Shown here: piece after piece, positions 1,224-38,061 of the stretch
Numbering within the stretch: the stretch's first letter is position 1
Layout: each line of letters starts with the position of its first letter
NCBI GenBank assembly: GCA_016185755.1
Contig: JACPMX010000010.1
Location: 3,863-67,862 of the forward strand
Source of the DNA: Candidatus Woesearchaeota archaeon
Lineage (GTDB): Archaea; Nanobdellota; Nanobdellia; Woesearchaeales; GW2011-AR4
DNA: 64,000 bases
Reading direction: 5' to 3'
Made by a program: the position numbers and the translations under genes
The notes under the pieces: model-generated
Seen by the model: the letters and a program-made list of their open reading frames with translations, nothing else
Told to the model about the DNA's origin: nothing
The model's database searches: none

Positions 1224-1532
1224 TTAAATGACTTCTTCTATTATGTCTTCATCCACCTCATAGTCAGAGGCATTTGCTGTTTCCCTTATCACAAGGTACT
1301 CGTATGCCTTCTGAAGGACCAATGCGGCCTTTGGCAGGTCATTAATTCTCAAAGAATTAGCTGTTTGCCAGACTCCACTCTTGTCTTTATACCTTCTCTG
1401 CAAAGAAACGGTTCTGTAACCTACTGGTTCTCCGCTTCTGCTCTTGCCTTGGTTCTGCCAGACAGTTGCAGTTATAACTCCTGTGCTGAATTTCTTTTCA
1501 GGCACGTTTCTAGTTTCGTTCATTTTCTTCAC
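1224..1532 (-). CDS. hypothetical small protein (102 aa)
   Basis: Single clean ORF with an acidic C-terminus and no recognisable motif. Preceded at 1673-1713 by a TATA box plus the ACCACTGGACA motif on the same strand. Confidence 0.4.
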   Translation of the reverse strand: MKKMNETRNVPEKKFSTGVITATVWQNQGKSRSGEPVGYRTVSLQRRYKDKSGVWQTANSLRINDLPKAALVLQKAYEYLVIRETANASDYEVDEDIIEEVI

Positions 1533-1692
1533 CCATTTGCTATTCGCGTTTTTTTCAAAGCCTCCTTGATTATGGATGCAAAGGTATTAGGCGGATTTAC
1601 GCCATTAACCTGCATTCCCAGAGGCTGGGTAAAATCGCTTTTTACGATTTCAAAAGTATAGAGTACGAGTTTCTTTATATATTCTAGGCAGA

Positions 1693-1713
1693 GATGTCCA
1701 GTGTCCAGTGGTT
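1693..1713 (-). promoter_or_regulatory. duplicated ACCACTGGACA motif (AACCACTGGACACTGGACATC) upstream of a TATA box
   Basis: Plus strand reads GATGTCCAGTGTCCAGTGGTT. On the minus strand it lies 11 nt upstream of TATATAAAG at 1673-1686 and about 140 nt upstream of the 102-aa ORF. Confidence 0.4.
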
Positions 1714-1873
1714 GTGGAATATATATGTTGGAGGAGATAGGAAGCTTAATCTAATCTTCTTTAATTACAAAAGCGCATAGTCTCTCTCGATATACCGGAC
1801 ATTTACCATTACAATAATCCAACGCTTGTAAGCATTTTAAGGAGCAAGATTAACGATTTAACCTAGCCATTCT

Positions 1874-2080
1874 TCACATAGAAATAAGATTATCTACCTG
1901 CAGCTCTTTTAGAATATTGGGATTTCTTTCCTTGACAAACAATATTTCAACCCCTATCACATCACCTTTCTTGTTGAAATCTATCACTGTGTTTTCGTCT
2001 ATCTCTTTCGTCTTGGCAACCTTATCCTTCTTCAGGGATATGTACATTGCATCCGCATCGGAATCATATCTTATTCTCAT
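1874..2080 (-). CDS. DUF2283-family protein (putative antitoxin-like partner)
   Basis: 68 aa. Opens MRIRYDSDADAMYISL, typical of DUF2283. Overlaps the upstream DUF4258 gene by 4 nt (ATGA). Confidence 0.7.
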   Translation of the reverse strand: MRIRYDSDADAMYISLKKDKVAKTKEIDENTVIDFNKKGDVIGVEILFVKERNPNILKELQVDNLISM

Positions 2081-2289
2081 TTTATGAAATAGGAGGTTAT
2101 TACCTTTATATAATTTTCTTTTACATAAATGACTTTGAGAGTGTTGCCATTCAGCCTTTTCACTGCATAAAATTTGCGCCCTTCAACTCTTGTTTCATCG
2201 GGAGCTTTAAGAGCCTCCTCGACCCAGATTTTAGGTATTTTACGTTCCCTTATCTGCTCTTCAGCATGCAGTGTATAACTAATTTTCAT
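2077..2289 (-). CDS. DUF4258-family protein (putative toxin-like partner)
   Basis: 70 aa. Start MKISYTLHAEEQIRERKI and VKRLNGNTLKVIYV are typical of DUF4258. Forms a two-gene operon with the DUF2283 gene. TATA box TTTATAAA at 2313-2320. Confidence 0.7.
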   Translation of the reverse strand: MKISYTLHAEEQIRERKIPKIWVEEALKAPDETRVEGRKFYAVKRLNGNTLKVIYVKENYIKVITSYFIK

Positions 2290-2330
2290 AAAAATTTATC
2301 AAACTTCTATAGTTTATAAATCTCATCCAA

Positions 2331-2344
2331 GAATGTCCAGTGGT
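2331..2344 (-). promoter_or_regulatory. ACCACTGGACATTC motif upstream of the TA-operon TATA box
   Basis: Reverse complement of GAATGTCCAGTGGT. TTTATAAA at 2313-2320 lies 10 nt downstream in the gene direction. The DUF4258 ATG is at 2289. Confidence 0.5.
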
Positions 2345-2346
2345 AT

Positions 2347-3336
2347 CTATCCCTGCAGCCTCTTCATCTCTTCCTCAGGGTTTGGATTTGTATCGACGCT
2401 TTGCACGACAAACTCGAGCCTGTTGAACATGGAATTCTTGTTTGTCCTTCCGTTCAGCTTGACAATAGTCCCGAGCAGGTCGTTCTTCACAGCCTCAAAG
2501 TCGGCAGGATTGTTCTTGAAATTAAGCATCTGCTCCTGGTTCTTGCCAAGCAGTTTTTCAAGCTGGTTCCTGAAAAACACGCACCTTATAGTTTCAGTTC
2601 CGTCATCAAGCACGGAGTTAAGGACATAAGCATAGGCCGGAATCACGTTTCCGTGCTCTGAGCATTCAAACAAGGCTGCAGTCGGTTTTGCCCTTTTTCC
2701 GCATCTCGGGCAGATTTCATAAAACCTTATGTCAAATACCTGCACTATTGTGCCCAGTAATTCAACTTCATTGTCGTTCTCTTTCAGCTCCTTTATCTCC
2801 TTCCTTGTGCCATTCTTGGCTTCGACAGCGACTTCCTTTACAGCCTCTCCTTTCGGATTAATCAATAGTTGCGACTTGTCATTAAGATGAATTTCTTTCC
2901 TTCCGTTATTTTCCCTTACATAGCCGCCGACAACCTTGACAATAAAGCCCTGGCCTAGATTGGCTGCATTATCTGCTTGACTGCCCCACATCACAACCCT
3001 TATCGTTCCTGTTTCATCGCCGACAAGCATGGAAGCGACTTTGCTCAATGAATCTCCCTTCATGAACTCCCTTGTCTCGTAAATCTGCAGAACTTTTCCT
3101 ACAGTCTCCACGTCCCTCATTCCGCTAAGAATGTTCTTTATCTGCAGTTTCCCGCTCAGGGGCTCGAAAATCTTCACTCCAAGCTCGTTCGCAATGATGT
3201 GGGCAGCCCCCTCTTTGCTTATCAGACCTGAAAGCTGCTTCAGCTTCTTCTCTATTCTTTCCTCGATTTCCGATACTGACATCTGCGTCTTCTCGTTTAT
3301 CTTCAGAATTATCTCCTCGTAAGGAATCTTTATCAT
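2347..3336 (-). CDS. rpa: replication protein A (ssDNA-binding, OB folds plus zinc ribbon)
   Basis: 329 aa. OB-fold regions and a C4-type Zn ribbon CPRCGK...CSEHG. Archaeal RPA architecture. Lies next to radA. Confidence 0.8.
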   Translation of the reverse strand: MIKIPYEEIILKINEKTQMSVSEIEERIEKKLKQLSGLISKEGAAHIIANELGVKIFEPLSGKLQIKNILSGMRDVETVGKVLQIYETREFMKGDSLSKVASMLVGDETGTIRVVMWGSQADNAANLGQGFIVKVVGGYVRENNGRKEIHLNDKSQLLINPKGEAVKEVAVEAKNGTRKEIKELKENDNEVELLGTIVQVFDIRFYEICPRCGKRAKPTAALFECSEHGNVIPAYAYVLNSVLDDGTETIRCVFFRNQLEKLLGKNQEQMLNFKNNPADFEAVKNDLLGTIVKLNGRTNKNSMFNRLEFVVQSVDTNPNPEEEMKRLQG

Positions 3337-4353: not shown

Positions 4354-5475
4354 TTATGATATTGCCCTTACCTCCTGTCCTGTTTTCTGCTCGAGAGCGA
4401 CTGCCCTGTTGTACCTGTCAGTTCCGCAGCATTCGTAATGCCAAAGCTCTGCAGAATATCTTCTGAAGCCTGCCTTGTACATTACCCCTTCAAGCTCTTT
4501 CCAGTCTGCAACCGTCATTGTTTTTTTGAACCTGACATCAACGGCTTTTCCGCTCATGTGCGGGCATGAAGCAAGCCCCTTATTGGGATTGCAGACATAC
4601 TTTGCTCTTTCCGCATCAGTTGGGAATCTTTGCGCGTATTTTTCAGGAGTCCTTCCTTCCCACAGGTCTCTTTGCTCCTGCTCAGACCTGAAAGCTGAAT
4701 AAACCTCAAGTTCTTTCCCTTTTTCCTTTGCAATCCTTTGCGCATCGGCTGCTTTTTGGTAAGCTTCTAATGTCAGCCTGCATTTGATTCCTTTTGCGCA
4801 CAAATTCTCGTCGCTAAAGTCCTTGAAGCCTGAAATCTCCTGCAGAGTGGGCATCTGCTCCGGGCCGATTATTCTTTTCTCTTCTTTGGGAATTCGCTTC
4901 AGCGTCTCTTCTTTCTTCTTTATGCTTTCATCCTTCAGAATCTCAAATTTCAATGGATCTTTCGAAATACCGATAATTTCTGTGCTGCCCCTTATGTCAT
5001 AGATATAGTTGTTAAGCTGGATTTCTGAAGGGTAATTGGCAATGTATCCGCTGAATTTTTCATTGAACTGCAGCTCAAGGTTTAATTTTATTTTATTCTC
5101 GCTGAAGCAGTCAACACCTTTGTCATTCCATAGGAAATAGCCGTAATATTTTCCGCACTCTTTAATTGGAGAATGCAGGGTTGGGTGCTCTCTTGGAGTC
5201 AGGATTTCGCTTGCATAAACCTCGCTTAATCCCCCGTCTCTCGCAAGGTCGTAAACTGCCTGCTGCAAAGAATACTTTGCTGACTGGTCGATGTAAAACA
5301 AGGCTCCCTCGGCTTTCATGTAAACTTTGAGCAGTGTGAATTGCCTGTCTCCGATCGGGGAGCTGGAAAACGTCCCTGTCTTTGACAAAAGAACAATAAA
5401 CAAGTAAATCAGGATTAATGATGACAGAATAACCAGTAAAGGCAGGAAAAAAAATGATGCTTTTTTATTTTTCAT
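4354..5475 (-). CDS. membrane-anchored peptidase M15 (VanY / D-Ala-D-Ala carboxypeptidase-like) domain protein
   Basis: 373 aa. N-terminal TM segment. C-terminal domain has CPHMSGKAVD (the H-x2-G-x-A-x-D zinc-ligand motif) and ELWH (E-x-x-H), the VanY/M15 signature. Confidence 0.6.
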   Translation of the reverse strand: MKNKKASFFFLPLLVILSSLILIYLFIVLLSKTGTFSSSPIGDRQFTLLKVYMKAEGALFYIDQSAKYSLQQAVYDLARDGGLSEVYASEILTPREHPTLHSPIKECGKYYGYFLWNDKGVDCFSENKIKLNLELQFNEKFSGYIANYPSEIQLNNYIYDIRGSTEIIGISKDPLKFEILKDESIKKKEETLKRIPKEEKRIIGPEQMPTLQEISGFKDFSDENLCAKGIKCRLTLEAYQKAADAQRIAKEKGKELEVYSAFRSEQEQRDLWEGRTPEKYAQRFPTDAERAKYVCNPNKGLASCPHMSGKAVDVRFKKTMTVADWKELEGVMYKAGFRRYSAELWHYECCGTDRYNRAVALEQKTGQEVRAIS

Positions 5476-25097: not shown

Positions 25098-25137
25098 ATA
25101 AATATTTTAGCCGCTTTTTATATAAAGCTATTGCTGC

Positions 25138-25155
25138 TTCCATGCGAAATGAAGG
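25138..25155 (+). promoter_or_regulatory. ORB-like element TTCCATGCGAAATGAAGG followed by a G-string
   Basis: Exact copy of the 18-mer at the cdc6 promoter, followed by GGG. It sits 41 bp upstream of the Rpp30-like start and 193 bp upstream of tbp. Confidence 0.5.
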
Positions 25156-25347
25156 GGGCATATTTCTTCAAAAATCCATTTTGCGATCGCTCTATTTAAA
25201 AACAAAAGTATTTATAAATAAATCCACTTTATAAATATTTATAAAGAAATTACATAAAAAGAGCTGATTTAAAGCCTTATAGGTTTATTGGGGGTGTTTT
25301 AAGGCTTTATCAATGGAATTAACTATTAATAATCGGAGGAATCTAAA

Positions 25348-26076: not shown

Positions 26077-26090
26077 ACCACTGGACATTC
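26077..26090 (+). promoter_or_regulatory. ACCACTGGACATTC motif upstream of the mcm TATA box
   Basis: Identical 14-mer occurs, in the gene-direction orientation, upstream of the DUF4258 gene at 2331-2344. The TATA-like ATATTTAAAG at 26100-26109 is 9 nt downstream. Confidence 0.5.
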
Positions 26091-26131
26091 CCATGCAAGA
26101 TATTTAAAGGGCAAAAACAAAGTTGGTGATC

Positions 26132-28156
26132 ATGGAAATAAATGCTATAGAGCAGATAAAGAGGTTCCAGGAATTTATAGACAGCAATTACTATAATTCG
26201 CTGCTCGAGAATGCAAGGAAAGGGACCAAGTCGCTGCTTATAGATTTCTCGGAGCTTTCAAAATACGACCCTGATTTGGCTACAGAGCTCCTTGATTCCC
26301 CGGAAGAAACCATAAAGGCAATTGAAAAATCGATTGAGCAGTTTGACGTCGACGGCCTGGCAGATTTCAGGATCCGGTTTAATAACCTGCCCCTGACCCA
26401 GCATGTAATGATAAGAGACATCAGGAGCAAGCACATAAACAGGCTTCTCTTTATAGAAGGGCTGATAAGGCAGAAATCCGATGTAAGGCCCCAGGTCACA
26501 TCTGCAAGGTTTGAATGCCCTATGTGCGGCAACATAATGAATGTGCTGCAGCTTGAAGGCACATTCAAGGAGCCGACAAAGTGCGGCTGCGGAAGAAAAG
26601 GGAAATTTATCATGCTTGACAAGGATCTTGTTGATGCCCAGGGCATCGTGCTCGAAGAGGCTTCTGAAAATTTGCAAGGAGGGGAGCAGCCGAAGCGCAT
26701 AAGCGTTCTTCTGACAGACGATCTTGTCAGCCCGTTGAGCGAGAAAAGGACTTCTCCGGGGAGCAAGGTGCAGGTTTTTGGAATTGTGAAGGAAGTGCCT
26801 ATTATATCAAAATCCGGGGCAAAATCAACAAGGTTTGACCTGATGATTGATGCCAATTACATACAGCCGACAGAAGACACTTTTTATGAAGTCAATATAA
26901 CTGAGGATGAAGAAAAGCAGATTCTCGAAATTGCAAACGATCCTAAAGGCTACGACAAGTTGGTGAACTCGATTGCCCCTTCAATTTATGGCTATGAAAA
27001 GGTAAAGGAAGCTTTATTGCTCCAACTGATGGGCGGTGTAAGAAAAACAAGGACAGACAGCGTGGTGAGCAGGGGTGATATGCATATTTTGCTGGTTGGC
27101 GACCCTGGATCTGGAAAATCAGCATTGCTGAAAAGAATAACGCAAATTGCGCCAAAAGGCCGCTATGTGAGCGGAAAAGGGGTTAGCGGTGCGGGCATTA
27201 CGGCAGCTGTTGTAAGGGACGAGTTTTTGAGGGGATGGGCATTGGAAGCCGGTGCAATGGTCCTCAGCAGCGACGGCCTTGTGTGTGTTGACGAGCTTGA
27301 CAAGATGAGCTCTGAAGACAGGGCAGCTATGCACGAGGCTCTTGAAAATCAGACTGTCAGCATATCAAAGGCAAACATACAGGCCACCCTGATAGCAAGG
27401 ACTACCGTGCTTGCGGCAGCCAATCCGAAATTTGGAAGATTTGATCCTTATGGGGTTATTGCAGACCAGATTGACTTGCCTCCGACATTGATCAACAGGT
27501 TCGACTTGATATTTCCGATAAAGGATTTGCCAGAGGAAACAAGGGACGAGAGAATGGCAAAGCATATCCTTACATTGCATCAGAATCCTGACATACAGGA
27601 GCCTGAGATATCGACTGATATTTTGAGGAAATTCGTGGCTTATGCAAGGCAAAGAGTCTCTCCAAAGCTGACAGAAGGGGCTTTGGAAGAGATAAAGGAA
27701 TTTTACTTGAAGATGAGGAGAAGCGGCAGCGGCGGGGAAAGCGGCATACATGCAGTGCCTATTTCTGCAAGGCAGCTTGAGGCATTGGTCAGGCTGAGCG
27801 AGGCATCTGCAAGGTCCAGGCTGGATGACAGGGTTACAAGAAGGGATTCAAAAAAGGCAATAGAGCTTCTTGATTATTGCCTGATGCAGATTGGGCTTGA
27901 CAAGGAAACCGGAAAGATAGACATAGACAGGCTTGCAACCGGAATAGCTGCAACACAGAGAAGCCACATAATGGTTGTCAAGGACATCATAGGCGAGCTT
28001 GAGGTTAAGCTTGGAAAATCAATTCCTGTAGAGGAAGTTTTTGCCGAGGCAAGAACAAGGAACCTGGACGAGGACAAGGTGGAGGAAGCCCTTGAAAGGC
28101 TGAAGCGTTCGGGTGACATTTTTGAGCCGAAAAGGGGATTTTTGAGCAGGATATAA
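26132..28156 (+). CDS. mcm: MCM replicative helicase
   Basis: Zn finger CPMCGN...CGCG. Walker A GDPGSGKS. Walker B CVDELDKM. Arginine finger region. C-terminal winged helix. The track start at 26123 is TTG, so I use the ATG at 26132. Confidence 0.95.
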   Translation: MEINAIEQIKRFQEFIDSNYYNSLLENARKGTKSLLIDFSELSKYDPDLATELLDSPEETIKAIEKSIEQFDVDGLADFRIRFNNLPLTQHVMIRDIRSKHINRLLFIEGLIRQKSDVRPQVTSARFECPMCGNIMNVLQLEGTFKEPTKCGCGRKGKFIMLDKDLVDAQGIVLEEASENLQGGEQPKRISVLLTDDLVSPLSEKRTSPGSKVQVFGIVKEVPIISKSGAKSTRFDLMIDANYIQPTEDTFYEVNITEDEEKQILEIANDPKGYDKLVNSIAPSIYGYEKVKEALLLQLMGGVRKTRTDSVVSRGDMHILLVGDPGSGKSALLKRITQIAPKGRYVSGKGVSGAGITAAVVRDEFLRGWALEAGAMVLSSDGLVCVDELDKMSSEDRAAMHEALENQTVSISKANIQATLIARTTVLAAANPKFGRFDPYGVIADQIDLPPTLINRFDLIFPIKDLPEETRDERMAKHILTLHQNPDIQEPEISTDILRKFVAYARQRVSPKLTEGALEEIKEFYLKMRRSGSGGESGIHAVPISARQLEALVRLSEASARSRLDDRVTRRDSKKAIELLDYCLMQIGLDKETGKIDIDRLATGIAATQRSHIMVVKDIIGELEVKLGKSIPVEEVFAEARTRNLDEDKVEEALERLKRSGDIFEPKRGFLSRI

Positions 28157-28157
28157 A

Positions 28158-28775
28158 ATGCCAGAGCTAGAGCAGAAAACATTCCAGAGGCAGGTAGCCT
28201 ACAAAATCAGGATTTCCGATATACTTGACAGTTCCTTGAAAAAGGACGAGACTTCTGCAGGCTATATTATTTTAAATGGCATGAACGTGTCAAGAGTCAA
28301 TATAATTGCAACCGTGGTTTATATTTCTGAAGATTCCGGCTTCAGGAGCACCCTGATTGATGACGGCACAGGCAGGATATCATTGAGGGCTTTCGATAAC
28401 TCTAATCTTTTCTCTGCTCTTGAAATAGGGGATGTTGTACTGATGGTCGGGAAAATAAGGGAATTCAGCAATGACAAGTACATCATGCCCGAAATACTCA
28501 AGAAGCTCGGCGATACAGGATGGCTGGGACTGAGAAAAGCTGAATTGGACAGGCTGCCTGATATAAAGGGTGAATCCCAAAAGCCTGATGAGGCAGTAAA
28601 TACCGGCGAGCATATCTATTCATTGATCAGGTCGCTTGACATTGGCGACGGTGTGCCAATAGAGGATATAATTAAGAAATCAAATGATTCTATGGCAGAA
28701 AAAATTATCAGCAGGCTGCTTGAGAGCGGTGATATTTTTGAAGTGAGGCCCGGCATGCTTAAAGTTCTAGAATAA
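28158..28775 (+). CDS. OB-fold nucleic-acid-binding protein coupled to mcm
   Basis: 205 aa. Starts 1 nt after the mcm stop. VNIIATVVYISE...LIDDGTGRISLRAFD...GDVVLMVGKIREF is an OB-fold pattern of RPA/SSB type. C-terminal helical region. Confidence 0.5.
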   Translation: MPELEQKTFQRQVAYKIRISDILDSSLKKDETSAGYIILNGMNVSRVNIIATVVYISEDSGFRSTLIDDGTGRISLRAFDNSNLFSALEIGDVVLMVGKIREFSNDKYIMPEILKKLGDTGWLGLRKAELDRLPDIKGESQKPDEAVNTGEHIYSLIRSLDIGDGVPIEDIIKKSNDSMAEKIISRLLESGDIFEVRPGMLKVLE

Positions 28776-30268: not shown

Positions 30269-30829
30269 TTAATGATGAGTAATAGCATTTTTCCAGATGG
30301 CGTCTTCAAGTACTCCTTCCCTAAATAATCTTTCCAGCTCTCCAGGTGGGCAGTCTTTATCTCTCAAAGATATTCGTAATAAATCCCTATCGGGTTTTTT
30401 GTGAACGTACCCTGCACGTTTCATACATTCAATGATCTCCCCTTCTTGATTAATTGTGTAGCCATCAAATATTATAGTTCTTCTAAATATAATATCATAT
30501 TCAACAACCTGCGATAAAACAAAGGATCCTTTTGCGCTAGGAATTGTTGATTCGGCGTGCTCTATTAGTTTAGCTGCATCAGCCTCACTTCTAACTATCG
30601 AAGGATGGTCTGAAACTTTTATTTTGTTGCTATTTTCAGGTTCCAAAAACCTTCTGACATTTTTCGCGGCCGCAAGAAATCTTCTGAGCTCTTCTCCTGA
30701 TGTTGCCTTGGGATCTAATTTACCTTCCCCAACAGACTCAAAATCTGCACACCAGCCTACATACAAACATAGTTCTGTGTATTCCATAAACTTCAGCAGA
30801 AATAGATAGGGTTTTAAAAACCTACCCAA
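30269..30829 (-). CDS. hypothetical protein downstream of PolD large subunit
   Basis: 186 aa with no recognised motif. Overlaps the DP2 stop by 8 nt. An alternative start is 30787. Confidence 0.4.
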   Translation of the reverse strand: MGRFLKPYLFLLKFMEYTELCLYVGWCADFESVGEGKLDPKATSGEELRRFLAAAKNVRRFLEPENSNKIKVSDHPSIVRSEADAAKLIEHAESTIPSAKGSFVLSQVVEYDIIFRRTIIFDGYTINQEGEIIECMKRAGYVHKKPDRDLLRISLRDKDCPPGELERLFREGVLEDAIWKNAITHH

Positions 30830-33800
30830 ACCACCTGTTCAATCCTTCCTGCCTGTCTTTGTCTTTTCCGAAAACGCCCTCGACCCTGCTTTTTGTCAGC
30901 TCCAGGACCTGCTTGAGATAAGGCGGGAGGTTGTACTTGTCAGACAATGATATTGCCGGCTCAAGGTATTTTATTATCGAGCCCTCGCTTACCGTGAACA
31001 TCAGCTTGCTCCCGCATGCAAGGCATTTCCCGGTAAGCGGCGGCCTCCGGTATTTCTCCGTGCATTTGCTGCACCTGAATTCCTGCATCGAGAACCTCCT
31101 TAAATTGCCTTTGATGTCTCTCAATAAATGCTTCTCTATCACGAGCCTCGCGACATCGGCCGCGTCAACAGCCCTTATCTTGTCCGCAAGCTCCATCTGC
31201 CCCTTTAATTTGTCCTCCATCGAGGGGATGGTCTTGTAAGAAGAGCATTTGACTCCGATGTTTATGTTGCTCACAGGATGGGTATACCATATCCTTCCCA
31301 GCTGGCCTGAATTCATTATGTTTGCAAACCTTTCTATCTTTACATTCCATGGCAGCTCATAGCGCAGCGTTGCCTCGTAAAATTCCAGGGGATACCTGCT
31401 CACAATGTCCACATCAAATATCATGTCGTCAACTTCTGTCGGCACAAGCTTTGATGTCAAAACCAATGGCGCATCCTGCGTCGAGCCTCTTGTGTTTGGC
31501 AGGAACTGCCTTGAGAAATTAAGCAGAACATCCATGAGCAAAGTCACTGATGCTTCGTCCCCGTCGCAGTCCCTTCTTGTTGCAGCGTGCATCAGCGGAT
31601 GCGCATAGAAGGCCTGTGTTTTTGAAAACCCTATTATCCTCCCGACTATGCCCGCTGAAGTATGCGGCGCCAGGGCCACCACCAGGTGCCCCACAAGATC
31701 CTTCCATGATTCCAGGTTATAAAATTTTTCCAGGCCGTAAAGCGACGCCAAAAGCTCGTCTATGAACTGGCTCACGTTGTAGAGTATCTTGTCAGCTCCA
31801 AGTTCCGGAGCGTCTTCGCATTTTGGAAGTATGATATCCTGCGGCTTCAGTTCCAGTATTTGCTCCGCATCTTCAAGCTCATTTTCATAAATGTCCTTGG
31901 TATAGCCCAGATTTTTAAGCTCCTCTACAGAAGTCCCTATCTCTTTTGGCTTGAAATGGGTTATGGGCAGCTGGGTCATGTCATACCTTGTGGTGCCGTC
32001 TTTATTGACAGGCACATCATGCTTTGCCCTCAGGATTCCCTTTGCGAAATGCTCTATGACATGGTCTTTGTTTGACGTGCCCCTTACTCCCTTTATCAGG
32101 TCCGGGTACTGCTGCATGCCTAATTTCTTCAGCGTCTTTTTGAAATAATTGTTTATGTCTATTCTTTGCTTCTTGTAAAGGTCTGCATTTCCATGGGGGC
32201 ATTTTCCATCTGGAACCGTGCCGCATGCGCTGCAGTATCCCTGCCTGCCTGCTTTCTTGTCGCATTGCTCGCAGACGCTGAATATTGTCTCTTTCCTGCA
32301 TCCGCTGCAAAAATATATCGGAAATTCCGCCTCAACCGAGCCGAATTCCATCGCGCTCTGGAAGGACCTCATCTTGCCGCCTTCCTTGCCTATAGGAAAA
32401 AGAGTATGCGGGTCCCCGTCAAGCTTCCTGGCTTTTGCCTTTTCCGGCCTCCCCATCCTTGCCCCGATGAATGTTCCTGACTTGTCCCTCATTTTTATTT
32501 CAGAAATTGAATTTATGATGTCAAGGACATCCTCGAGCTCGCTTGCAATGAGTTTGCTGTGAAATTCATTGTTGCAAATGAATAGCTTATGCAGTATTCC
32601 TGCCGTGTCCCCTTCAATCACCGTAAGTTCATTGTTGATAAAAGTGTGTGGAACCCCTGCCAATTCCAGCACTCTTTTTGCAACTTCGTTTTTTGGCAGG
32701 ACTATTTTTTTGATGTCATCTCCTTCCGATTCTGCCTCCCCTTCTTTCAGCCACTTTGCCAGCTCTATGAAATTTTCCTTTGACAGGGTTTTCCAGTGGA
32801 AAGTGTAGCATGGGTGAAGTGGTATCCCAAGTGCCTGGCTCAGTTTTATTGCAACTCCTGCTGAAGGCTTCTCAAAGAAATAATCTTTGGCCAGTTTTTC
32901 TAGATGCCCTGATTCGATGCCTACCCATTCAGACAGCTTTTCATAATCCACCGAGCCGAATTTTTCGGATATTGCTTTCTCGAATTCCAGTGCCCACCAT
33001 TCCTCGCAATACCCTGCAGGAACTAAAGTATGCGCCCTGTTGAAGAAATCGCCGTAGTTTATCAGTATGTCCCCCAAGAAAATTATTTCCTTGACTGAAT
33101 TGGAATATTGTTTTGCCTGCTGCTCGCTTTCTATCTTTACGACGCTGTTGTCATTCAGCTTTATGATTGGGCCTTCAATTGAGTCACAAACCGTTATGGC
33201 TGTTGCCTTGCCCGGCCTTTCAACTTTCAATTGCGTGCCGATTGCTATGTACTTGTTCAGTATAATCATTGTAGCAGGGTGTATTGCCGTTGCCGAGTAT
33301 CCTGAAGTCCTGCACCTGCCGTATCTCAGCCTCAGACCTCCTGGCATAAGGGGGTGGGTAAGCACCGGCCTTCCGGCAACTAAATCCTGTATGTAAGTGT
33401 AGATTGGGACAATCCCTTTCTTCGCTGTTTTTTCTTTTGCCTTCATTTCTTTTTGCAGATGGACGAATTCCTGCAGGAATGCCCAGTGCTCCAGATTGAA
33501 TTCTTCACCCCATTTTTTGAGTTGTGTCCACACTTTTGCAGCTTTCTGCGCTACACATTCCCCAAGTACAAGGCACGGGCCGCTCCTTATCCTGTTTGTC
33601 TCTATTCTTTCGATGTCCTTGTAATTGGAGACTTCTATGTCTTCTGACGCATCCCCGTCGATCTGCACGGGCAGGTTGCCCACAAGAAATCTTATTTCCT
33701 TTTCGCTTGGAAGATACTGCAGATTTGTGACCCTCTCATGATAATCATAAAGCTCTGTAACCATTCTCCTTATTTCCTTTTCCGACGGGTCATATACATC

Positions 33801-34310
33801 ATATCCCATGGATTTCCTGATGTAATCTGCTATGACGACGCTTGCCGCCCCTGCCGTTCCTCCTGCGCTCCTTATAGGTCCGGAATACATCAGGCAGAAA
33901 TATTCCTTGTTGTCCTTCCTTTTGTTTATCTTCAGGCCTACAAATCCTTCGAGGGGCGATGCCACAATGCCGAGAGTCATGTACGCAAGCCCTATCCTGA
34001 TTCCTGTTTCGATTGCCTCTGTTTGTGTGCCGAATTTGCAGAATTTTTCCTGTGCTGTTTCAAGTGATATTTTAAGCGCAACTCTCCAGTCTAGCTTCCC
34101 GTAGCTTGCCTCAAGTTCTTTTATCCTTTGGGGTATCCCCTTGTTTGTTATTTTAGGCGCTGAAACGCTTACAAGCCCCTCCACCCTTTCTGCCATGTCT
34201 TTTGCAAGCGGTATGTTTACCGTATCTTCGGGATCGTACCCTTTTGCCCTTGCCTCGTTTGCAGCTTTGTATGCTGCATTTACATTTTCAAGTATTCCAG
34301 CCTTCATCAT
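30822..34310 (-). CDS. DNA polymerase II (PolD) large subunit DP2
   Basis: 1162 aa. Cys clusters CSGCRKET...CEQCDK and CSACGTVPDGKCPHG. Full-length match to the archaeal DP2 catalytic subunit. No intein-sized insertion. Confidence 0.95.
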   Translation of the reverse strand: MMKAGILENVNAAYKAANEARAKGYDPEDTVNIPLAKDMAERVEGLVSVSAPKITNKGIPQRIKELEASYGKLDWRVALKISLETAQEKFCKFGTQTEAIETGIRIGLAYMTLGIVASPLEGFVGLKINKRKDNKEYFCLMYSGPIRSAGGTAGAASVVIADYIRKSMGYDVYDPSEKEIRRMVTELYDYHERVTNLQYLPSEKEIRFLVGNLPVQIDGDASEDIEVSNYKDIERIETNRIRSGPCLVLGECVAQKAAKVWTQLKKWGEEFNLEHWAFLQEFVHLQKEMKAKEKTAKKGIVPIYTYIQDLVAGRPVLTHPLMPGGLRLRYGRCRTSGYSATAIHPATMIILNKYIAIGTQLKVERPGKATAITVCDSIEGPIIKLNDNSVVKIESEQQAKQYSNSVKEIIFLGDILINYGDFFNRAHTLVPAGYCEEWWALEFEKAISEKFGSVDYEKLSEWVGIESGHLEKLAKDYFFEKPSAGVAIKLSQALGIPLHPCYTFHWKTLSKENFIELAKWLKEGEAESEGDDIKKIVLPKNEVAKRVLELAGVPHTFINNELTVIEGDTAGILHKLFICNNEFHSKLIASELEDVLDIINSISEIKMRDKSGTFIGARMGRPEKAKARKLDGDPHTLFPIGKEGGKMRSFQSAMEFGSVEAEFPIYFCSGCRKETIFSVCEQCDKKAGRQGYCSACGTVPDGKCPHGNADLYKKQRIDINNYFKKTLKKLGMQQYPDLIKGVRGTSNKDHVIEHFAKGILRAKHDVPVNKDGTTRYDMTQLPITHFKPKEIGTSVEELKNLGYTKDIYENELEDAEQILELKPQDIILPKCEDAPELGADKILYNVSQFIDELLASLYGLEKFYNLESWKDLVGHLVVALAPHTSAGIVGRIIGFSKTQAFYAHPLMHAATRRDCDGDEASVTLLMDVLLNFSRQFLPNTRGSTQDAPLVLTSKLVPTEVDDMIFDVDIVSRYPLEFYEATLRYELPWNVKIERFANIMNSGQLGRIWYTHPVSNINIGVKCSSYKTIPSMEDKLKGQMELADKIRAVDAADVARLVIEKHLLRDIKGNLRRFSMQEFRCSKCTEKYRRPPLTGKCLACGSKLMFTVSEGSIIKYLEPAISLSDKYNLPPYLKQVLELTKSRVEGVFGKDKDRQEGLNRWFG

Positions 34311-34312
34311 TT

Positions 34313-35806
34313 TTATTGCCCGAATTTGAGTATTTTTATGTCTCTCGTCTGCAAATTCACGATCGGGACCCTGCTCGGTTCCGGATTATGCCCAACTTTT
34401 TCCTGGAAGCTGGTCTTGCCCTGCCAGCAGCTTCCGCAGATCAGTGTGGTGTTTCTGTAATTTGCCGTAGCTGTTTTGTGTATGTGCCCGCTCAGGAAAA
34501 AATCAGGGACCTTTTCTATCACAAGCGGGTCTTTCTTGGTGTCTGGGATGTAAAGTGTTGAAAGGTGGGATGGTGCCAAGTGCCTCCTTTTCAGTAAAAA
34601 TTTCATGATTAAGTCTGCCCGGTCATACCCTCCCTGGTTCCTGAGCGAATCCACCTCGGCAACAAAATAGTCAAATGAGTATCCATGGTACATCATCACG
34701 TCAAATCCTGCAAAGTTTGCAGATGAGCTGATGTTGACCATTGAAGGGTTTGACACCATGATTGCATTGTTAAGCTCGTACATCGGCGCTGCAAAGTTTC
34801 TCGACAACGGCGGCTGCGGCTCTGAAATTCTTATTGCATCATGGTTCCCGGGGCAAATTACCAAGGGGATATTATTGGGTATCTGCTTGAGCAGCTCTGC
34901 GCATTCCCTGTATTGCTGGTAGATGTCTTTTATGGAAAGCTCCTTGTCCTGCTCGGGGTAAATTCCGCAGCCGTCAACCAGGTCTCCTGCAATGAATATG
35001 CATTCAACATTTTTTGCTATGTGCCTTTGCTGCTCATTGCCGGCCTCGCAGTTTATCCACCTGAGGAATTTTTCAAAATCGTCGGGCAGGAATTTGGACG
35101 ATCCGACATGAAGGTCTGACAGGAACAGTGCATATTTTTCCTGCTCTGATTTTTTAAGCTCCTTGCTTGAGGGAGTGTCCGGCCAGACAATGCTGTTGGC
35201 GAATATCATAGTTTCCGCATTCACCCCAGTGATCCCTATCACTTCGTCCATAACCAGGTCTTTCGCTTCCTTGAATAGGTCCGGCCTGTTCTTATTGACA
35301 AGAACCCTCTTCCTTCCCGTCGGGTCTTCAAGCATCAAAAGCATATTGCCGTTCTTCGTCACTTGCTTGTCGCTGACCATTCCAATGATTGTTATTTTCT
35401 CTTTCTCTTTTTTGTTCTGTATCTTGTTTAATGAAATTGTATTTTTAAGCTCCTGGTGCTGCTTGAGTATTTTTTCCATTGCCTTGTACCTGTTGTTGAA
35501 GTAATCGGCAAAATCCTGTGTTTCCCTTTTTTTCGGCTCTTCCTTGTGTGAAAAAATGACCTTGACTTTTTCTCCGGTCTTCTCAATATATCCCTCCGCT
35601 AATTTTTCAGGTTGGGGCTCTTCTATAAGCCTGCCGAGCTCCAGGCCCAGCACTGCAGAATCAGTGTGCTTTGATTTGAGCAATTCAAAAAGTTTGGAAA
35701 TATGGTTGTAATCTTTTATCTCCAGCAGCTTGGGGCTGATTAAAACGCCGTTTTTCAGGCACGTGTCTATGATCTCGCGCTTCTTTTTGATGATTTCTTC
35801 CTGCAT
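34313..35806 (-). CDS. DNA polymerase II (PolD) small subunit DP1
   Basis: 497 aa. Calcineurin-like phosphoesterase motifs GDLVD and CPGNHD. N-terminal OB region. Confidence 0.9.
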   Translation of the reverse strand: MQEEIIKKKREIIDTCLKNGVLISPKLLEIKDYNHISKLFELLKSKHTDSAVLGLELGRLIEEPQPEKLAEGYIEKTGEKVKVIFSHKEEPKKRETQDFADYFNNRYKAMEKILKQHQELKNTISLNKIQNKKEKEKITIIGMVSDKQVTKNGNMLLMLEDPTGRKRVLVNKNRPDLFKEAKDLVMDEVIGITGVNAETMIFANSIVWPDTPSSKELKKSEQEKYALFLSDLHVGSSKFLPDDFEKFLRWINCEAGNEQQRHIAKNVECIFIAGDLVDGCGIYPEQDKELSIKDIYQQYRECAELLKQIPNNIPLVICPGNHDAIRISEPQPPLSRNFAAPMYELNNAIMVSNPSMVNISSSANFAGFDVMMYHGYSFDYFVAEVDSLRNQGGYDRADLIMKFLLKRRHLAPSHLSTLYIPDTKKDPLVIEKVPDFFLSGHIHKTATANYRNTTLICGSCWQGKTSFQEKVGHNPEPSRVPIVNLQTRDIKILKFGQ

Positions 35807-35807
35807 T

Positions 35808-37013
35808 TTATGACCTTACATTATCTTCCAGGATTGTTTTTATTTTTGGCAGCACTGTTTCGGAAATTTCAACTGATATTTCCCTTGTCCTGCCGTATCT
35901 TCCCTTCGATATTACTTTCGCGTTGACTATGCCGAGCATGTCAAATTCAGATATGATGTCTGAGACGCGCCTCTGTGTGAGTGTGCTCGTGTTGGTCTTG
36001 CCGCACAATGACTTGTATATCTCATAAACTTCGCCGGTGAATATGCTGTTTCCCCTCCCTTTCCTTAGGGAAAGTATTGAATAAAGCACAAGCTGGTACT
36101 GCTTTGGCTGTGTTGTGACTATGTCTATTATCCTGTCCCGGTCTATTTTTTCCTCTGCCTCGTCTATGTGGCTTATTGTGATTTTTCTGGAATTTTTCCT
36201 GTCAGCCACCTCTCCGGCAACCCTCAGCAGCTCAAGCGCCCTCCTTGCATCGCCGTGGTCCCTTGCAGCATATGCTGCGCATTTTTCCACCACTCCGTGC
36301 TCAAGGACATCCTTGTTGAATGCGAGCTCTGCCCTCTGCTTGAGTATTGCCTGTATCTGCAGCGCGTTGTATGGCGGGAAAACAACTTCTTCTTCAGAAA
36401 GCGATGACCTCACCCTTGGGTCAAGGTTATCAACAAACATTATGTCGTTGGATATCCCGATTATCGAGATTTGTGATTCTGTGTCTTCATTCATCCTTGT
36501 GAGGTTATAAAGGACGCTGTCTCCGGTTTTGTTTATTAGCTGGTCTATCTCGTCCAGAATCAGAATATAGTTCTGCTCGTTTTTGTTTACTGCCCTTAAA
36601 AACGCCTTGTAAATCTCTTCAGTAGGCAATCCCGTAGCCGGCAAGGACTTTCCAAGCTCTGTGGCCAGCTGCGCAATCAGCCTGTATTCCGTGTCTGCGC
36701 TTCTTTTAAGCTTGCAGTTGATATACAAAACCCGGATAGGTATGTTTTCCTTTTCAGCTATTTCCAGCAGTTTTTTTGTTGTGTGCTTGATTGTAAGTGT
36801 TTTTCCTGTGCCGGTTTTCCCGTAAATGAATATATTGGATGGTTTGTCCCTTTTTAGTGCCGGAGCAAGTATATTAGCGATTTGTTTTGTTTGTTCTTCC
36901 CTGTGAGGTATTGTTTCGGGTATATAACCTGATTGAAGCACTTTTTTGTCAAAAAAGACGCTTTCTTTTCTTAGAAATACCTCAAAGAAACCATCCAACC
37001 CCTTTTCAGTCAT
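35808..37013 (-). CDS. cdc6: Orc1/Cdc6 replication initiator
   Basis: AAA+ Walker A IYGKTGTGKT and Walker B LILDEID. C-terminal winged helix. I place the start at the second Met (MTEKG) because the first 11 codons of the track ORF overlap an ORB-like repeat. Confidence 0.9.
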   Translation of the reverse strand: MTEKGLDGFFEVFLRKESVFFDKKVLQSGYIPETIPHREEQTKQIANILAPALKRDKPSNIFIYGKTGTGKTLTIKHTTKKLLEIAEKENIPIRVLYINCKLKRSADTEYRLIAQLATELGKSLPATGLPTEEIYKAFLRAVNKNEQNYILILDEIDQLINKTGDSVLYNLTRMNEDTESQISIIGISNDIMFVDNLDPRVRSSLSEEEVVFPPYNALQIQAILKQRAELAFNKDVLEHGVVEKCAAYAARDHGDARRALELLRVAGEVADRKNSRKITISHIDEAEEKIDRDRIIDIVTTQPKQYQLVLYSILSLRKGRGNSIFTGEVYEIYKSLCGKTNTSTLTQRRVSDIISEFDMLGIVNAKVISKGRYGRTREISVEISETVLPKIKTILEDNVRS

Positions 37014-37017
37014 GCTT

Positions 37018-37035
37018 TTCCATGCGAAATGAAGG
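37018..37035 (+). promoter_or_regulatory. ORB-like element TTCCATGCGAAATGAAGG (copy 1 at cdc6)
   Basis: Identical 18-mer to 25138-25155. It resembles an archaeal origin recognition box of the TCCA-N4-GAAATGAA type, as I recall the consensus. It lies immediately upstream of the cdc6 start. Confidence 0.6.
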
Positions 37036-37065
37036 TATTTAAACATTTCCTTTACTCTCGCTACC

Positions 37066-37083
37066 CCTTCATTTCTTATGGAA
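37066..37083 (-). promoter_or_regulatory. ORB-like element, inverted copy (16/18 match)
   Basis: CCTTCATTTCTTATGGAA on the plus strand is the reverse complement of the 18-mer with 2 mismatches. It is separated from the first copy by 30 nt. Confidence 0.5.
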
Positions 37084-37281
37084 CCGGTTTCTTTTTGTTT
37101 TTTGTTATATGATATAATATCTATCTATATAGAAAATAAATAAGGTAACACAAAAACAAAAAAAAGAAAAAACAAATTCCAATGGAAATAATGGGGTGAG
37201 CACGGTAATTTTTTATTTATTTATCACTTAATAATAATAAAAACAGTAATATTTTTAAACAAAAGACACATACCCAAAAAC
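37084..37281. other. AT-rich tract, putative DNA unwinding element of oriC
   Basis: About 200 bp of roughly 75% AT lying between the ORB pair at cdc6 and the trmB-like gene. Confidence 0.45.
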
Positions 37282-38061
37282 ATGCCCACACCAACAACAG
37301 AAAAACAGCTCAGGAATTTGGGGTTGAACCTTTACGAAGTGAAGATCTGGGCTGCTTTATTGAGCAGGGGGGTTTCCACAGCAGGGGAGCTGAGCGACAT
37401 AGCCAATGTCCCGAGGTCAAGAAGCTATGACGTGCTTGAAAGCCTTGAGAAAAAGGGGTTTGTGATCATGAAGCCCGGAAAACCGGCACAGTATACTTCA
37501 ATACCCCCGAACGAAGCAATTGAAAAAACAAAGAAAAGAGCACGGGAAGAAACAAGGCTGGAAATAAGCAATTTAAACAACCCACAAGGTAAAAAAATTT
37601 TATCAAACTTGAAAAAATTACATGCGCAAGGACTTAAACATGTGGATTCACCAGACCTTTCCGGATCCCTGAAAGGCAGAACCAACATATACAATCATAT
37701 GGAAAACATGTTTAAAAGAGCAAACACCCAAATAATTATAGCAGCGGCACAAAAGGAGCTGGAAAACATTGCAGATCATTTTAATGTGCTCTTTGAGCAA
37801 CTCCACAGGAAAAATATCAAAATAAAACTTTTGACACAGCCAGGCGCAAAAGCCGGAGAGAATATGGCAAGGCTTGCAGGCATGGCAGAAACCACAAATA
37901 TTGGGAGCAATGCAAGATTCTGCATCGTTGACGGCAGGGAAATTATATTTATGGTGGGGGATGGCAATGAAGTCCATCCGGCTTATGATTTTGGGGTATG
38001 GGTGACCACCCCATTAGCCAAAGATATGGAAGAAGTGTGCTTAAGGAAGGTAAATTCATAA
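37282..38061 (+). CDS. TrmB-family transcriptional regulator
   Basis: 259 aa. N-terminal wHTH LGLNLYEVKIWAALLSRGVSTAGELSDIANVPRSRSYDVLESLEKKGFV. Confidence 0.7.
   Translation: MPTPTTEKQLRNLGLNLYEVKIWAALLSRGVSTAGELSDIANVPRSRSYDVLESLEKKGFVIMKPGKPAQYTSIPPNEAIEKTKKRAREETRLEISNLNNPQGKKILSNLKKLHAQGLKHVDSPDLSGSLKGRTNIYNHMENMFKRANTQIIIAAAQKELENIADHFNVLFEQLHRKNIKIKLLTQPGAKAGENMARLAGMAETTNIGSNARFCIVDGREIIFMVGDGNEVHPAYDFGVWVTTPLAKDMEEVCLRKVNS

Follow-up and report, generated by a model that had tools for sequence, protein, structure and literature searches.

Here we describe a short promoter element, CCACTGGACAT (the box), which probably (at roughly 75%, in our estimate) acts as a cis-regulatory element of a replication and repair gene set in a clade of Woesearchaeota. 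The box precedes three promoters in the window (the whole 64-kb stretch of DNA analysed here, from the genome of an uncultivated Woesearchaeota (DPANN) archaeon), and at least ~150 promoters carrying a box and a TATA box are present in related genomes altogether. It very probably represents the docking site of a regulator of DNA-maintenance genes. To our knowledge, very little has been learned of how genes are regulated in DPANN archaea, which cannot be cultivated on their own, and among archaea in general we are aware of a single DNA-damage regulon for which both motif and regulator are defined (Orc1-2, Sulfolobales). No paper giving the box sequence in an archaeal context was found in the literature, nor any on DPANN promoter motifs or regulons. 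The box would allow the genes of the replication and repair programme of these organisms to be predicted from the DNA itself, and provides an 11-bp bait for finding the regulator.

An earlier note on the window had drawn attention to a 14-mer common to the promoters of mcm and of a DUF4258/DUF2283 pair, with a tandem form before a small ORF beside radA, and all of these sites are confirmed (Table 1). On its own the shared 14-mer says little, as we estimate that some 15 repeats of this kind would arise by chance in 64 kb on both strands, and a 3-mismatch search of the window with the 14-mer gave 6 matches versus 3.7 expected, which is not significant. The constrained common unit is best described as (A)CCACTGGACAT. 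The element proposed earlier is therefore real as a common element but not conserved over all of its 14 bp, as its final 'TC' is part of a variable pyrimidine-rich linker. The 10-mer core CACTGGACAT is significant; it occurs 3 times in the window versus 0.09 expected, a number reached in 0 of 100 shuffles, and all three cores are followed after exactly 12 nt by a TATA box of the form TWTWTAAA. Only 46 TWTWTAAA sites are present in the window, and the number of cores at one fixed offset from them is 3, compared with 4e-5 expected. The distance of 9-11 nt given previously describes the same geometry, counted from the end of the longer 14-mer. In box C the two copies overlap, with an offset of 7 nt.

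Table 1. Boxes, TATA boxes, genes and origin-related features of the window discussed in the text.
Feature	Position	Strand	Remarks
Box A, 14-mer ACCACTGGACATTC	26077-26090	+	TBP-mcm intergenic region; core CCACTGGACAT at 26078-26088
Spacer A, 12 nt	26089-26100	+	box A to TATA box; pyrimidine linker plus BRE position
mcm TATA box TATTTAAA	26101-26108	+	23 nt to ATG at 26132
mcm, replicative helicase	26132-28156	+	Pfam MCM, MCM_OB, MCM_lid, MCM_WH_arc; target of box A
OB-fold gene	28158-28775	+	Pfam tRNA_anti-codon/RMI2 OB fold; begins 2 nt after mcm stop
Box B, identical 14-mer ACCACTGGACATTC	2331-2344	-	core 2343-2333; begins 3 nt past stop codon of RPA-like gene
DUF4258/DUF2283 TATA box TTTATAAA	2320-2313	-	12 nt 3' of core B; 23 nt to ATG at 2289
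DUF4258 (2077-2289) / DUF2283 (1874-2080) module	1874-2289	-	Pfam; target of box B
Tandem box C, ACCACTGGACACTGGACATC	1692-1712	-	upstream copy CCACTGGACAc 1711-1701; downstream copy CACTGGACAT 1703-1694
Small-ORF TATA box TATATAAA	1681-1674	-	12 nt 3' of downstream copy of box C
Small-ORF leader, ~150 nt	1524-1673	-	between TATA box and ORF; sequence blocks conserved across family
Small ORF, 99 aa	1224-1523	-	four strands, then long helix, acidic tail; target of box C
radA	166-1167	-	Pfam Rad51; 56 nt downstream of small ORF, same strand
Full ORB	25138-25157		p30/TBP spacer, 0.9 kb upstream
Origin beside orc1	37047-37281		inverted ORB copies flanking AT-rich unwinding element
TrmB-like gene	37282-38061		adjoins origin

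Loci of relatives were fetched through MCM, and are thus unbiased by the box pattern (~29 genomes, 555 kb of Woesearchaeota DNA). The box is located upstream of mcm at the same distance in 26 of the ~29 genomes, with MCM identities down to 67%, and the mcm TATA box and its distance are the same as in the window, while the promoter flanks around the conserved box have diverged and are unalignable. The box at the mcm promoter is evidently conserved under selection across many species. Lineages that lack the box include L013, L017, L021 and L217-219. Enrichment at promoters, on which the earlier note had staked its proposal, is very strong: 32 of the 34 copies of CACTGGACA in the 555 kb of related DNA point towards a TATA box, and no exact match is present in control loci of Methanobacterium (0.88 Mb). 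The box-like matches in the latter lie inside the coding region of a metallophosphoesterase (GHTH motif) at one orthologous position, and were rejected. A scan of viral contigs for the box plus TATA box gave two matches of the same sequence, which are chance-like, and the element is therefore not considered viral.

The geometry of these promoters is rigid. In the MCM-fetched loci the box stands 12 nt (20 sites) or 14 nt (7 sites) from the TATA box, with nothing at 13, 15 or 16 nt and single 2-mismatch matches at 11 and 25 nt; over all sites listed, the 12-nt distance occurs 119 times, the 14-nt distance 35 times and 13 nt twice. Start codons usually lie ~20-26 nt beyond the TATA box, with longer leaders in some families. 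The box, which is on the coding strand, accordingly occupies positions of about -53 to -43, directly 5' of the BRE and about two helical turns from the TATA centre, and the suggestion that it lies just beyond the BRE, as an operator might, is borne out by the 12- or 14-nt distance and the fixed orientation. The BRE (the TFB recognition element) abuts the TATA box (about 6-7 nt) and is purine/A-rich. The box is not itself a BRE, since that position is filled by the spacer, which in box promoters reads YYNY-GCGT-RARR and is unusually G+C-rich, compared with [A/C]AWWAAA in 99 control promoters. The 10-mer core is near-invariant, with ~150 exact sites versus a handful of variants. Neither the box nor its surroundings contain a palindrome or dyad, and inverted copies are not enriched. 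A palindromic second operator within the 12-nt spacer was considered and rejected, because among all pairs of spacer positions only 13/20 covaries, and this is not a mirror pair. Extra direct copies of the box are present in 12 loci, at offsets of 7 or 15-16 nt, including 7-nt-offset tandems at 6 loci.

A metagenome scan yielded at least 120 further promoters with box and TATA box. Because only exact boxes followed by a consensus TATA box were accepted, degenerate sites and TATA variants are under-sampled. The downstream genes were clustered and confirmed by Pfam, and represent a sample from many species rather than the regulon of one genome. Most are involved in DNA metabolism, and the remainder are mostly selfish elements. 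Replication genes include mcm, an RFC-like gene, ribonucleotide reductase (RNR) and an Orc1/Cdc6 paralogue, while repair and recombination genes include a Cas4-like PD-(D/E)XK nuclease, Hef, a Hel308-like helicase, a Y-family polymerase, RadC, Nre, an RNase_H_2-family exonuclease and a radical-SAM/HhH protein. The selfish elements comprise LAGLIDADG, HNH, TnpB, a transposase, integrases, DNA methylases and TA pairs. Among the matches listed, Cas4/PD-(D/E)XK and LAGLIDADG recur most (at least 13 each), followed by the small ORF (at least 5) and by RNR, Bro-N, RNase_H_2 and TnpB (at least 4 each). The box thus marks a functionally coherent gene set, which would be co-regulated as judged by the shared promoter element, and the selfish elements appear to have adopted the same promoter, a case of archaeal mobile elements borrowing a host regulatory signal. 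It also flags several proteins as candidates for DNA maintenance, including the small ORF beside radA (>1500 clusters), the stand-alone Cas4-like nuclease, the RNase_H_2-family exonuclease and the radical-SAM/HhH protein. The idea that mcm, a TA module and a radA-adjacent ORF share a regulon gains support from the replication, repair and mobile genes behind these ~150 promoters.

Within the window, the box would drive mcm (together with the following OB-fold gene, probably co-transcribed given the absence of an intergenic gap), the DUF4258/DUF2283 pair and the small ORF upstream of radA. The DUF4258/DUF2283 module also lies behind a box in a relative (L119). Pfam confirms RadA and the RPA-like OB-fold protein in the window. 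The upstream region of radA contains only TTTTTAAA and no box, and control of radA by the box might be exerted solely through read-through from the small ORF, which is uncertain. The rpa gene and the orc1-PolD operon of the window likewise have no box of their own. The missing box at radA, rpa and orc1-PolD counts against a damage regulon, because such genes would be expected there. Ribosomal, tRNA-synthetase and pilus genes of the window also lack a box.

We propose that the binder of the box is a sequence-specific protein, monomeric on single boxes and arranged head-to-tail on tandem ones, which probably exerts positive control by helping to recruit TBP/TFB, so that the gene set would be turned on together during replication or DNA stress. 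Recruitment of TBP/TFB is the most likely mode of action because the box lies just 5' of an atypically G+C-rich BRE region and its distance to the TATA box is rigid. Archaeal activating sites next to the BRE include those of Ptr2 (Methanocaldococcus) and TFB-RF1 (Pyrococcus) and the GvpE UAS (Halobacterium). Like these, the box lies in non-coding DNA directly 5' of the BRE/TATA, stands at a defined distance and accompanies a BRE that is off consensus, and it is conserved at orthologous promoters of a coherent gene set. The known sites are mostly dyad-symmetric or dimer-bound and serve few operons, whereas the box is asymmetric and near-invariant, and serves a large regulon plus mobile elements.

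The box may instead be the operator of a LexA/SOS-like repressor, which would sit by the BRE and block loading of TFB/TBP until a damage or replication signal arrives. In bacteria, damage regulons include SOS (LexA), the Deinococcus RDRM/DdrO system and mycobacterial PafBC, which have palindromic operators and sigma-70 promoters. The gene content behind the box is SOS-like and shares with these regulons translesion polymerases, nucleases, helicases, nucleotide supply, TA modules and integrases, and mobile elements exploit the host signal in both; the box abuts the BRE position, and the near-consensus TATA boxes might make the promoters strong unaided. However, the bacterial systems belong to another domain of life with another transcription machinery, and the box, lacking a dyad in or around it, does not resemble a LexA-type SOS box. 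Well-studied archaeal repressors usually overlap the BRE/TATA or the start site, while activators typically bind upstream of the BRE. Moreover, a steric block would need neither a rigid 12/14-nt distance nor a fixed orientation, and a BRE region so rich in G+C suggests that TFB binds weakly and requires support. We consider repression doubtful, although it deserves some weight.

A further possibility is that the box belongs to the core promoter and is recognised, in place of a separate regulator, by a specialised basal factor such as an alternative TFB or TBP or an accessory subunit. Box and G+C-rich BRE would then form one extended recognition site, comparable in archaea to the promoters of alternative sigma factors. 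Sequence as nearly invariant as that of the 10-mer, over ~150 sites in many species, is found more typically in core-promoter elements than in ordinary operators, and the rigid TATA distance and orientation, a BRE region unlike that of ordinary promoters (GCGT-RARR versus [A/C]AWWAAA) and the adoption of the whole promoter by selfish elements fit equally. Against this, a TFB or TBP paralogue was not seen near any of the sites, the sole TBP found being the 97-99% conserved gene upstream of mcm. At 12-14 nt from the TATA box, the box lies farther out than the TFB helix-turn-helix is known to extend along the BRE. The two spacing classes and the tandem boxes are better suited to a separate DNA-binding protein, and a specialised basal factor is unlikely.

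It is highly improbable that the box is a mini-ORB at which the initiator Orc1 binds, and that it marks origins or initiator-loading sites near mcm and radA instead of controlling transcription. In its favour, the box matches the clade ORB core TCCAcAGGAAAT at 9/12 positions (CCA-N3-GA-N-AT is shared, and both are asymmetric and polar), a full ORB is found 0.9 kb upstream, and mcm is clustered with orc1 and PolD in the window. However, the ORBs of the window read TTCCA-N3-GAAAT-NAN-GGGG, and the box departs from this consensus in lacking the G-string. At the real origin beside orc1, inverted ORB copies flank an AT-rich unwinding element, an arrangement seen at no box site. The fixed partner of the box is a TATA box, always 12 or 14 nt away, with the box aimed at the gene; it precedes >100 unrelated genes, mobile elements included, and positions that vary in the ORB are invariant in the box and vice versa. 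This geometry largely refutes the mini-ORB reading.

That the three copies arose by chance or are remnants of duplication or insertion (a target-site duplication of the TA cassette, or a mobile promoter cassette) is barely credible: boxes B and C are direct repeats either side of the DUF4258/DUF2283 module, the region 5' of the small ORF differs between genomes and many box-driven genes are mobile, but the copies share only the box and TATA box within unrelated flanks, those of mcm and the small ORF are kept at orthologous sites across many species whether a TA cassette is present or not, single copies precede conserved chromosomal genes, unlike transposon ends or target-site duplications, and chance is excluded by the core and fixed-offset counts given above. 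As the sole explanation this reading is refuted, but inserted cassettes likely bring or acquire their own box promoter.

For the regulatory site that we favour, the best candidate binder is a second Orc1/Cdc6 paralogue, whose winged helix (wH) has diverged. In Sulfolobales, the non-initiator Orc1/Cdc6 paralogue Orc1-2 activates damage-response promoters through the DDRE (5'-ANTTTC-3' within the consensus AATAGTTTCRGWDTACTCWS) (Sun et al. 2018, PMC6061795). Both systems are archaeal, with a short asymmetric motif at DNA-damage or DNA-transaction genes, tens of bases before the start codon (PMC6061795), and the type of protein that is the binder there is here preceded by a box in several lineages. 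The systems differ in motif, CCACTGGACAT being unrelated to ANTTTC, and in lineage (Thermoproteota there, DPANN here). Sulfolobales targets include ups pili, the ced DNA importer and tfb3 (PMC6061795), while the Woesearchaeota box precedes replication and repair enzymes and mobile elements. The Sulfolobales regulon is damage-responsive with a defined binder, whereas that of the box is read from sequence alone.

In three lineages (L193, L214-216, L220-221) the box stands in the promoter of the Orc1/Cdc6 paralogue itself. In L213, L157 and L091 one or two boxes lie within 1 kb downstream of the paralogue, at what is one syntenic locus rather than independent cases. Among five lineages sampled by homology, two have no box near it. 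The paralogue aligns end to end with the origin-linked Orc1 at 31% identity, and its wH domain gives no match to Pfam Cdc6_C. The 9/12 match between the box and the clade ORB core also speaks for this candidate. We tentatively suggest that this diverged paralogue could be the self-regulating master of the replication and repair regulon, reading a promoter box derived from the ORB, a proposal to which we give a minority share of our belief; its link with the box may simply reflect its being a further replication gene under the same control. If the proposal is true, the paralogue would be the DPANN counterpart of Sulfolobales Orc1-2, the use of initiator paralogues as global regulators of DNA-transaction genes would be ancient or recurrent in archaea, and homing endonucleases, TnpB, integrases and TA modules would exploit this circuit in the way that such elements exploit bacterial SOS. 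The TrmB-like gene adjoining the origin was also considered as a regulator and rejected, being found beside orc1 in only two relatives and having no link with the box.

The small ORF 5' of radA is 100% identical to NCBI HYX08_03895 (from a 78-kb Woesearchaeota contig) and belongs to a large, uncharacterised family (1013 homologues; 1544 clusters at 50% identity) without a Pfam match. Its AF2 model (pLDDT 88) gave no significant fold match in a Foldseek search of the PDB, with nothing below E = 0.06 and Pur-alpha matched weakly. Assignment to a PC4/Pur-alpha/Whirly type was rejected, as no Pfam or PDB sequence match was obtained even with a 54-sequence profile and the resemblance is topological only. 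Despite the conserved blocks of its leader, no consensus RNA fold was found there, and an Rfam scan of the whole window returned no RNA family. The gene order small ORF-radA is conserved. The family recurs behind the box at least 5 times among the metagenomic matches listed, in addition to the window and L203, and the box is conserved at small-ORF promoters in 7 species, with a tandem identical to box C before the orthologous small ORF of another species (L203-L212). What precedes the small ORF differs from genome to genome, being the TA module in the window and DpnI in L203.

On the evidence of sequence comparison, the box is a selected promoter element of fixed orientation and distance that defines a gene set. 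Its 10-mer core CACTGGACAT is followed after exactly 12 nt by a TATA box at all three window sites, which precede mcm, the DUF4258/DUF2283 pair and a 99-aa small ORF 5′ of radA. The 14-mer reported in the earlier note is exact at two of these sites and occurs in tandem form at the third, and Pfam confirms the genes named there (mcm, DUF4258/DUF2283, RadA and RPA-like). By itself, a repeated 14-mer would be nothing unusual in a 64-kb stretch, and a search of the window with 3 mismatches gives a count that is not significant. The 10-mer core is observed three times against 0.09 expected (0 of 100 shuffles gave three); TWTWTAAA has only 46 sites on both strands, and cores at one fixed offset from it number three, with 4e-5 expected. 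Within the window, the box is absent from all ~30 translation genes, the pilus cluster, tRNA synthetases and metabolic genes, and from radA, rpa and the orc1-PolD operon.

Positions of features in the window
Feature	Position	Strand	Remarks
Box 14-mer ACCACTGGACATTC	26077-26090	+	exact match
Box 14-mer ACCACTGGACATTC	2331-2344	-	exact match
Tandem box ACCACTGGACACTGGACATC	1692-1712	-	
TATA box TATTTAAA	26101-26108		after core
TATA box TTTATAAA	2320-2313		after core
TATA box TATATAAA	1681-1674		after core
mcm	26132-28156		Pfam
DUF4258/DUF2283 pair	2289-1874	-	Pfam
RadA	166-1167		Pfam
RPA-like OB-fold protein	2347-3336		Pfam
Small ORF	1224-1523	-	
Small ORF leader	1524-1673	-	
RPA-like gene/small ORF gap	1713-2346	-	
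Probable replication origin	37047-37281		AT-rich stretch about 37090-37175
ORB at orc1 origin	37064-37083	-	
ORB at orc1 origin	37177-37196	+	
ORB at orc1 origin	37018-37037	+	
orc1/cdc6-PolD DP1-DP2 operon	30822-37046	-	
TrmB-like gene	37282-38061		
First codons of orc1 longest ORF	37011-37046	-	longest-ORF start 37046
TATA box TTTAAATA	37036-37043		
Likely true orc1 start (Met12)	37013		
RNase P p30/TBP intergenic region	25098-25347		
ORB with G-string	25138-25157	+	
Probable surface-appendage cluster	3426-23442	-	
373-aa ORF in this cluster	4354-5475		

MCM relatives from the genome collection place the window within Woesearchaeota (DPANN). About 30 related MAGs share 57-91% MCM identity; in 26 of ~29 related genomes CACTGGACA(T) stands in the mcm promoter at an equal distance to TATWTAAA, and the bases flanking the box show no conservation. 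In three genomes seemingly without it (L001, L009 and L016) the box lies further upstream, because a G+C-rich insert splits the promoter from the ATG. This insert is 60-100 nt long, contains internal repeats (L001:9950-10000, L009:9870-10000, L016:9870-10000) and could represent either a structured 5′ UTR or a small mobile element inserted there. Enrichment at promoters, whose absence the earlier note had set beforehand as the refutation test, is clearly present: CACTGGACA occurs 34 times in 555 kb of Woesearchaeota DNA (~4 expected from length), and 32 copies are aimed at a TATA box. These loci were fetched by protein similarity and are therefore unbiased by the box pattern. Allowing up to 2 mismatches, the spacing from box to TATA box in them is 12 nt (n=20) or 14 nt (n=7), with none at 13, 15 or 16 nt and one 2-mismatch match each at 11 and 25 nt. 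The outgroup, a block of Methanobacterium loci (0.88 Mb, MCM identity ~46%), contains no exact match, and its 2-mismatch matches were rejected as positions within a phosphoesterase gene.

The constrained unit is (A)CCACTGGACAT; 57% of sites have the leading A and 94% have the first C. The core is fixed by the search pattern in the metagenome set, and is exact in 22 of 27 mcm promoters fetched without reference to that pattern. In the spacer, a pyrimidine-rich linker leads into a BRE position unusually rich in G+C (consensus YYNY-GCGT-RARR); 99 ordinary promoters from these genomes have [A/C]AWWAAA there. The box has no palindrome and no inverted partner, and a palindromic operator in the spacer was ruled out. 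A further copy in direct orientation accompanies roughly one site in ten; it either overlaps the box with a 7-nt offset (as before the window small ORF and the orthologous gene in another species) or lies 15-16 nt upstream. With a 12-nt spacer the centres of box and TATA box are ~21.5 bp apart, equivalent to two helical turns, so that a bound protein would face TBP/TFB. What is unusual in the box is its near-invariance, the strict 12/14-nt rule and its wide adoption by selfish elements.

The pattern CCACTGGACAT-N12-14-TWTWTAAA, which requires an exact box, matches at least 120 loci in metagenome contigs from many organisms; viral contigs gave only two matches of one identical sequence, which are chance-like. 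Among the metagenome matches listed, 13-nt spacing occurs in only 2 of ~123, and with this class as the measure of noise a few per cent of the matches would be due to chance. Behind each promoter the first substantial ORF was called, the products were clustered and representatives were checked with Pfam, giving a list pooled over many genomes (genome loci being fetched as ~20-kb pieces). The metagenome loci include the Cas4/PD-(D/E)XK nuclease (~283 aa) and LAGLIDADG endonucleases, some HTH-fused (at least 13 each), the small ORF family (at least 5, plus the window and L203), ribonucleotide reductase with ATP-cone, Bro-N proteins, RNase_H_2-family (PF13482) exonuclease and TnpB (at least 4 each), MCM (at least 3, with 22 in genome loci), tyrosine integrases and N6/N4 DNA methylases (at least 3 each) and radical-SAM + HhH proteins (at least 2). 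Single cases among the matches listed are Hef (helicase + ERCC4), a Hel308-like helicase, RadC, an RFC-like clamp-loader subunit, a Y-family polymerase, an HNH nuclease, a DuOB protein, an IS240-type transposase, a ComF-like protein, AbrB and RHH antitoxin-like proteins and a second DUF4258/DUF2283 module (L119). HNH_repeat proteins are found at three loci directly 3′ of mcm (L001, L009, L010), and Nre at L220, a separate homology-fetched locus outside the metagenome scan. The functional flavour attributed to the gene set, that of a DNA-damage or replication-stress regulon, is borne out by these genes, which combine replication (mcm, RFC, RNR, Orc1 paralogue) with translesion and repair functions.

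The box is best described, as far as sequence allows, as a promoter-proximal regulatory box that marks out a regulon of DNA-transaction genes. A sequence-specific protein would bind it as a monomer, with head-to-tail arrays at tandem boxes, and, directly upstream of the non-consensus BRE, is predicted to contact TFB/TBP. Positive control by recruitment would be the favoured mode, because sites upstream of BRE are typical of archaeal activators, steric repression needs no such rigid geometry, and the BRE region looks weak. LexA-style repression via the box is a serious rival. Alternatively, the box may be recognised by a specialised basal factor within an extended core promoter, a reading for which the near-invariant core speaks. 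The signal may be DNA damage, replication stress or cell-cycle phase; the gene mix fits any of these.

The putative binder could be a second Orc1/Cdc6 paralogue, acting as a self-controlling regulator with altered specificity, a rather doubtful assignment. This protein (~355 aa) is encoded in three of the 120 box-fetched loci listed, each time within 1 kb of the box, which in one of them (L193) lies in the paralogue's own promoter. Among five lineages then sampled by homology, the box is in this promoter in two (L214-216, box + 12 nt + TTTATATA + 24 nt + ATG; L220-221, box + 14 nt + TTTTTAAA + 24 nt + ATG), two boxes lie just downstream in one (L213, which shares its syntenic locus with L157 and L091), and the box is absent in two. 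From end to end the paralogue can be aligned with the origin-linked Orc1 (31% identity; hhalign probability 99.9%); its C-terminal winged helix has no Pfam Cdc6_C match, whereas the origin-linked protein matches at 2e-28. Such features would be expected of a self-controlling regulator with altered specificity, for which the Sulfolobales Orc1-2 (PMC6061795) is a precedent, and equally of just one more replication gene in the regulon. The paralogue is widely conserved in Woesearchaeota (L157:638-1705, L091:9378-10448, L193, L213-L223), often with the box before it or a box-driven short ORF ('..T(I/Q)xNLFF..', leader ~100-220 nt) after it, and beside GINS51 or Sua5 in some lineages.

The closest known system is the Sulfolobales Orc1-2/ANTTTC damage regulon, whose logic may be the same; however, the box differs from it in motif, lineage and targets, and the motif places it outside that regulon. 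Ptr2, TFB-RF1 and GvpE represent archaeal systems with upstream activating sites, which the box resembles in position, and the bacterial SOS regulon is similar in gene content, including TA modules and mobile elements. No paper was found in the literature on the box sequence in archaea or on any DPANN regulon. The commonest ORB core of the clade, TCCAcAGGAAAT, equals the box at 9 of 12 positions, but the box lacks the G-string and the invariant positions differ between the two, so the box is not an origin element.

The small ORF invariably sits directly before radA in the same orientation, making read-through into radA possible, and lies behind a box promoter in seven species. Its product is 100% identical to a 'hypothetical protein' in NCBI from a 78-kb contig of a Woesearchaeota MAG, and its very large, uncharacterised family comprises 1013 close homologues and 1544 clusters at 50% identity. 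It has no sequence match in Pfam or PDB; the confident AF2 model (pLDDT 88) runs from four strands through a long helix to a disordered acidic tail, and has no significant match to solved folds, Pur-alpha appearing weakly. The 100-150-nt leader contains conserved blocks (ATAATCAAGGRG, TGAAA-N-AAAA-GCGAyAAGCAA, GAGGTG; window, L085, L086, L096, L131, L152, L203), gives no consensus structure by RNAalifold and may serve in protein binding or in the control of translation. The tight radA linkage, box promoter and long conserved-block leader make the small ORF a good candidate for a maintenance factor that binds DNA or RNA.

Genes of homing-endonuclease type (HNH_repeat, LAGLIDADG, HTH fusions) have the box promoter followed by a conserved ~150-nt leader, which starts CTAATTCT..., contains GAAAAAGAGAACACGCAAAACTG and may be a mobile unit or non-coding RNA (L001:12066, L009:12052, L010:8637, L112:5851, L116, L130, L168, L188, L197, L201); a second class has TCATTTACATAGTT after the TATA box. 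MCM matches are interrupted at residues 408/327 in several relatives (L022-L031, L063), and RNR products of up to 1598 aa cluster with LAGLIDADG proteins, which suggests that mcm and RNR genes of the clade contain inteins. The gap separating the small ORF from the RPA-like gene differs in content between genomes (compared with L203-L209), holding DUF4258/DUF2283 here and a DpnI restriction gene with small ORFs in L203, and resembles a hot spot for insertions, with cargo that brings its own box promoter. The probable surface-appendage cluster, from which the box is absent, encodes many small proteins with N-terminal hydrophobic pilin-like segments and very large secreted proteins (1692 and 793 aa).

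The probable origin, located between the orc1/cdc6-PolD operon and the TrmB-like gene, is of textbook form, with inverted ORBs (TTCCA-N3-GAAAT-NAN-GGGG) around an AT-rich stretch. The first codons of the orc1 longest ORF contain a canonical TATA box and an ORB-like sequence, and its ATG reads ATA in the relative L001; the longest-ORF start is probably too far upstream, Met12 (22 nt after this TATA box) being the likely true start. Outside this origin, the full ORB in the p30/TBP intergenic region adjoins an AT-rich stretch 0.9 kb upstream of the mcm promoter, has counterparts at the equivalent place in L002, L020 and L029, and could mark either a second origin or a TBP promoter under Orc1 control.
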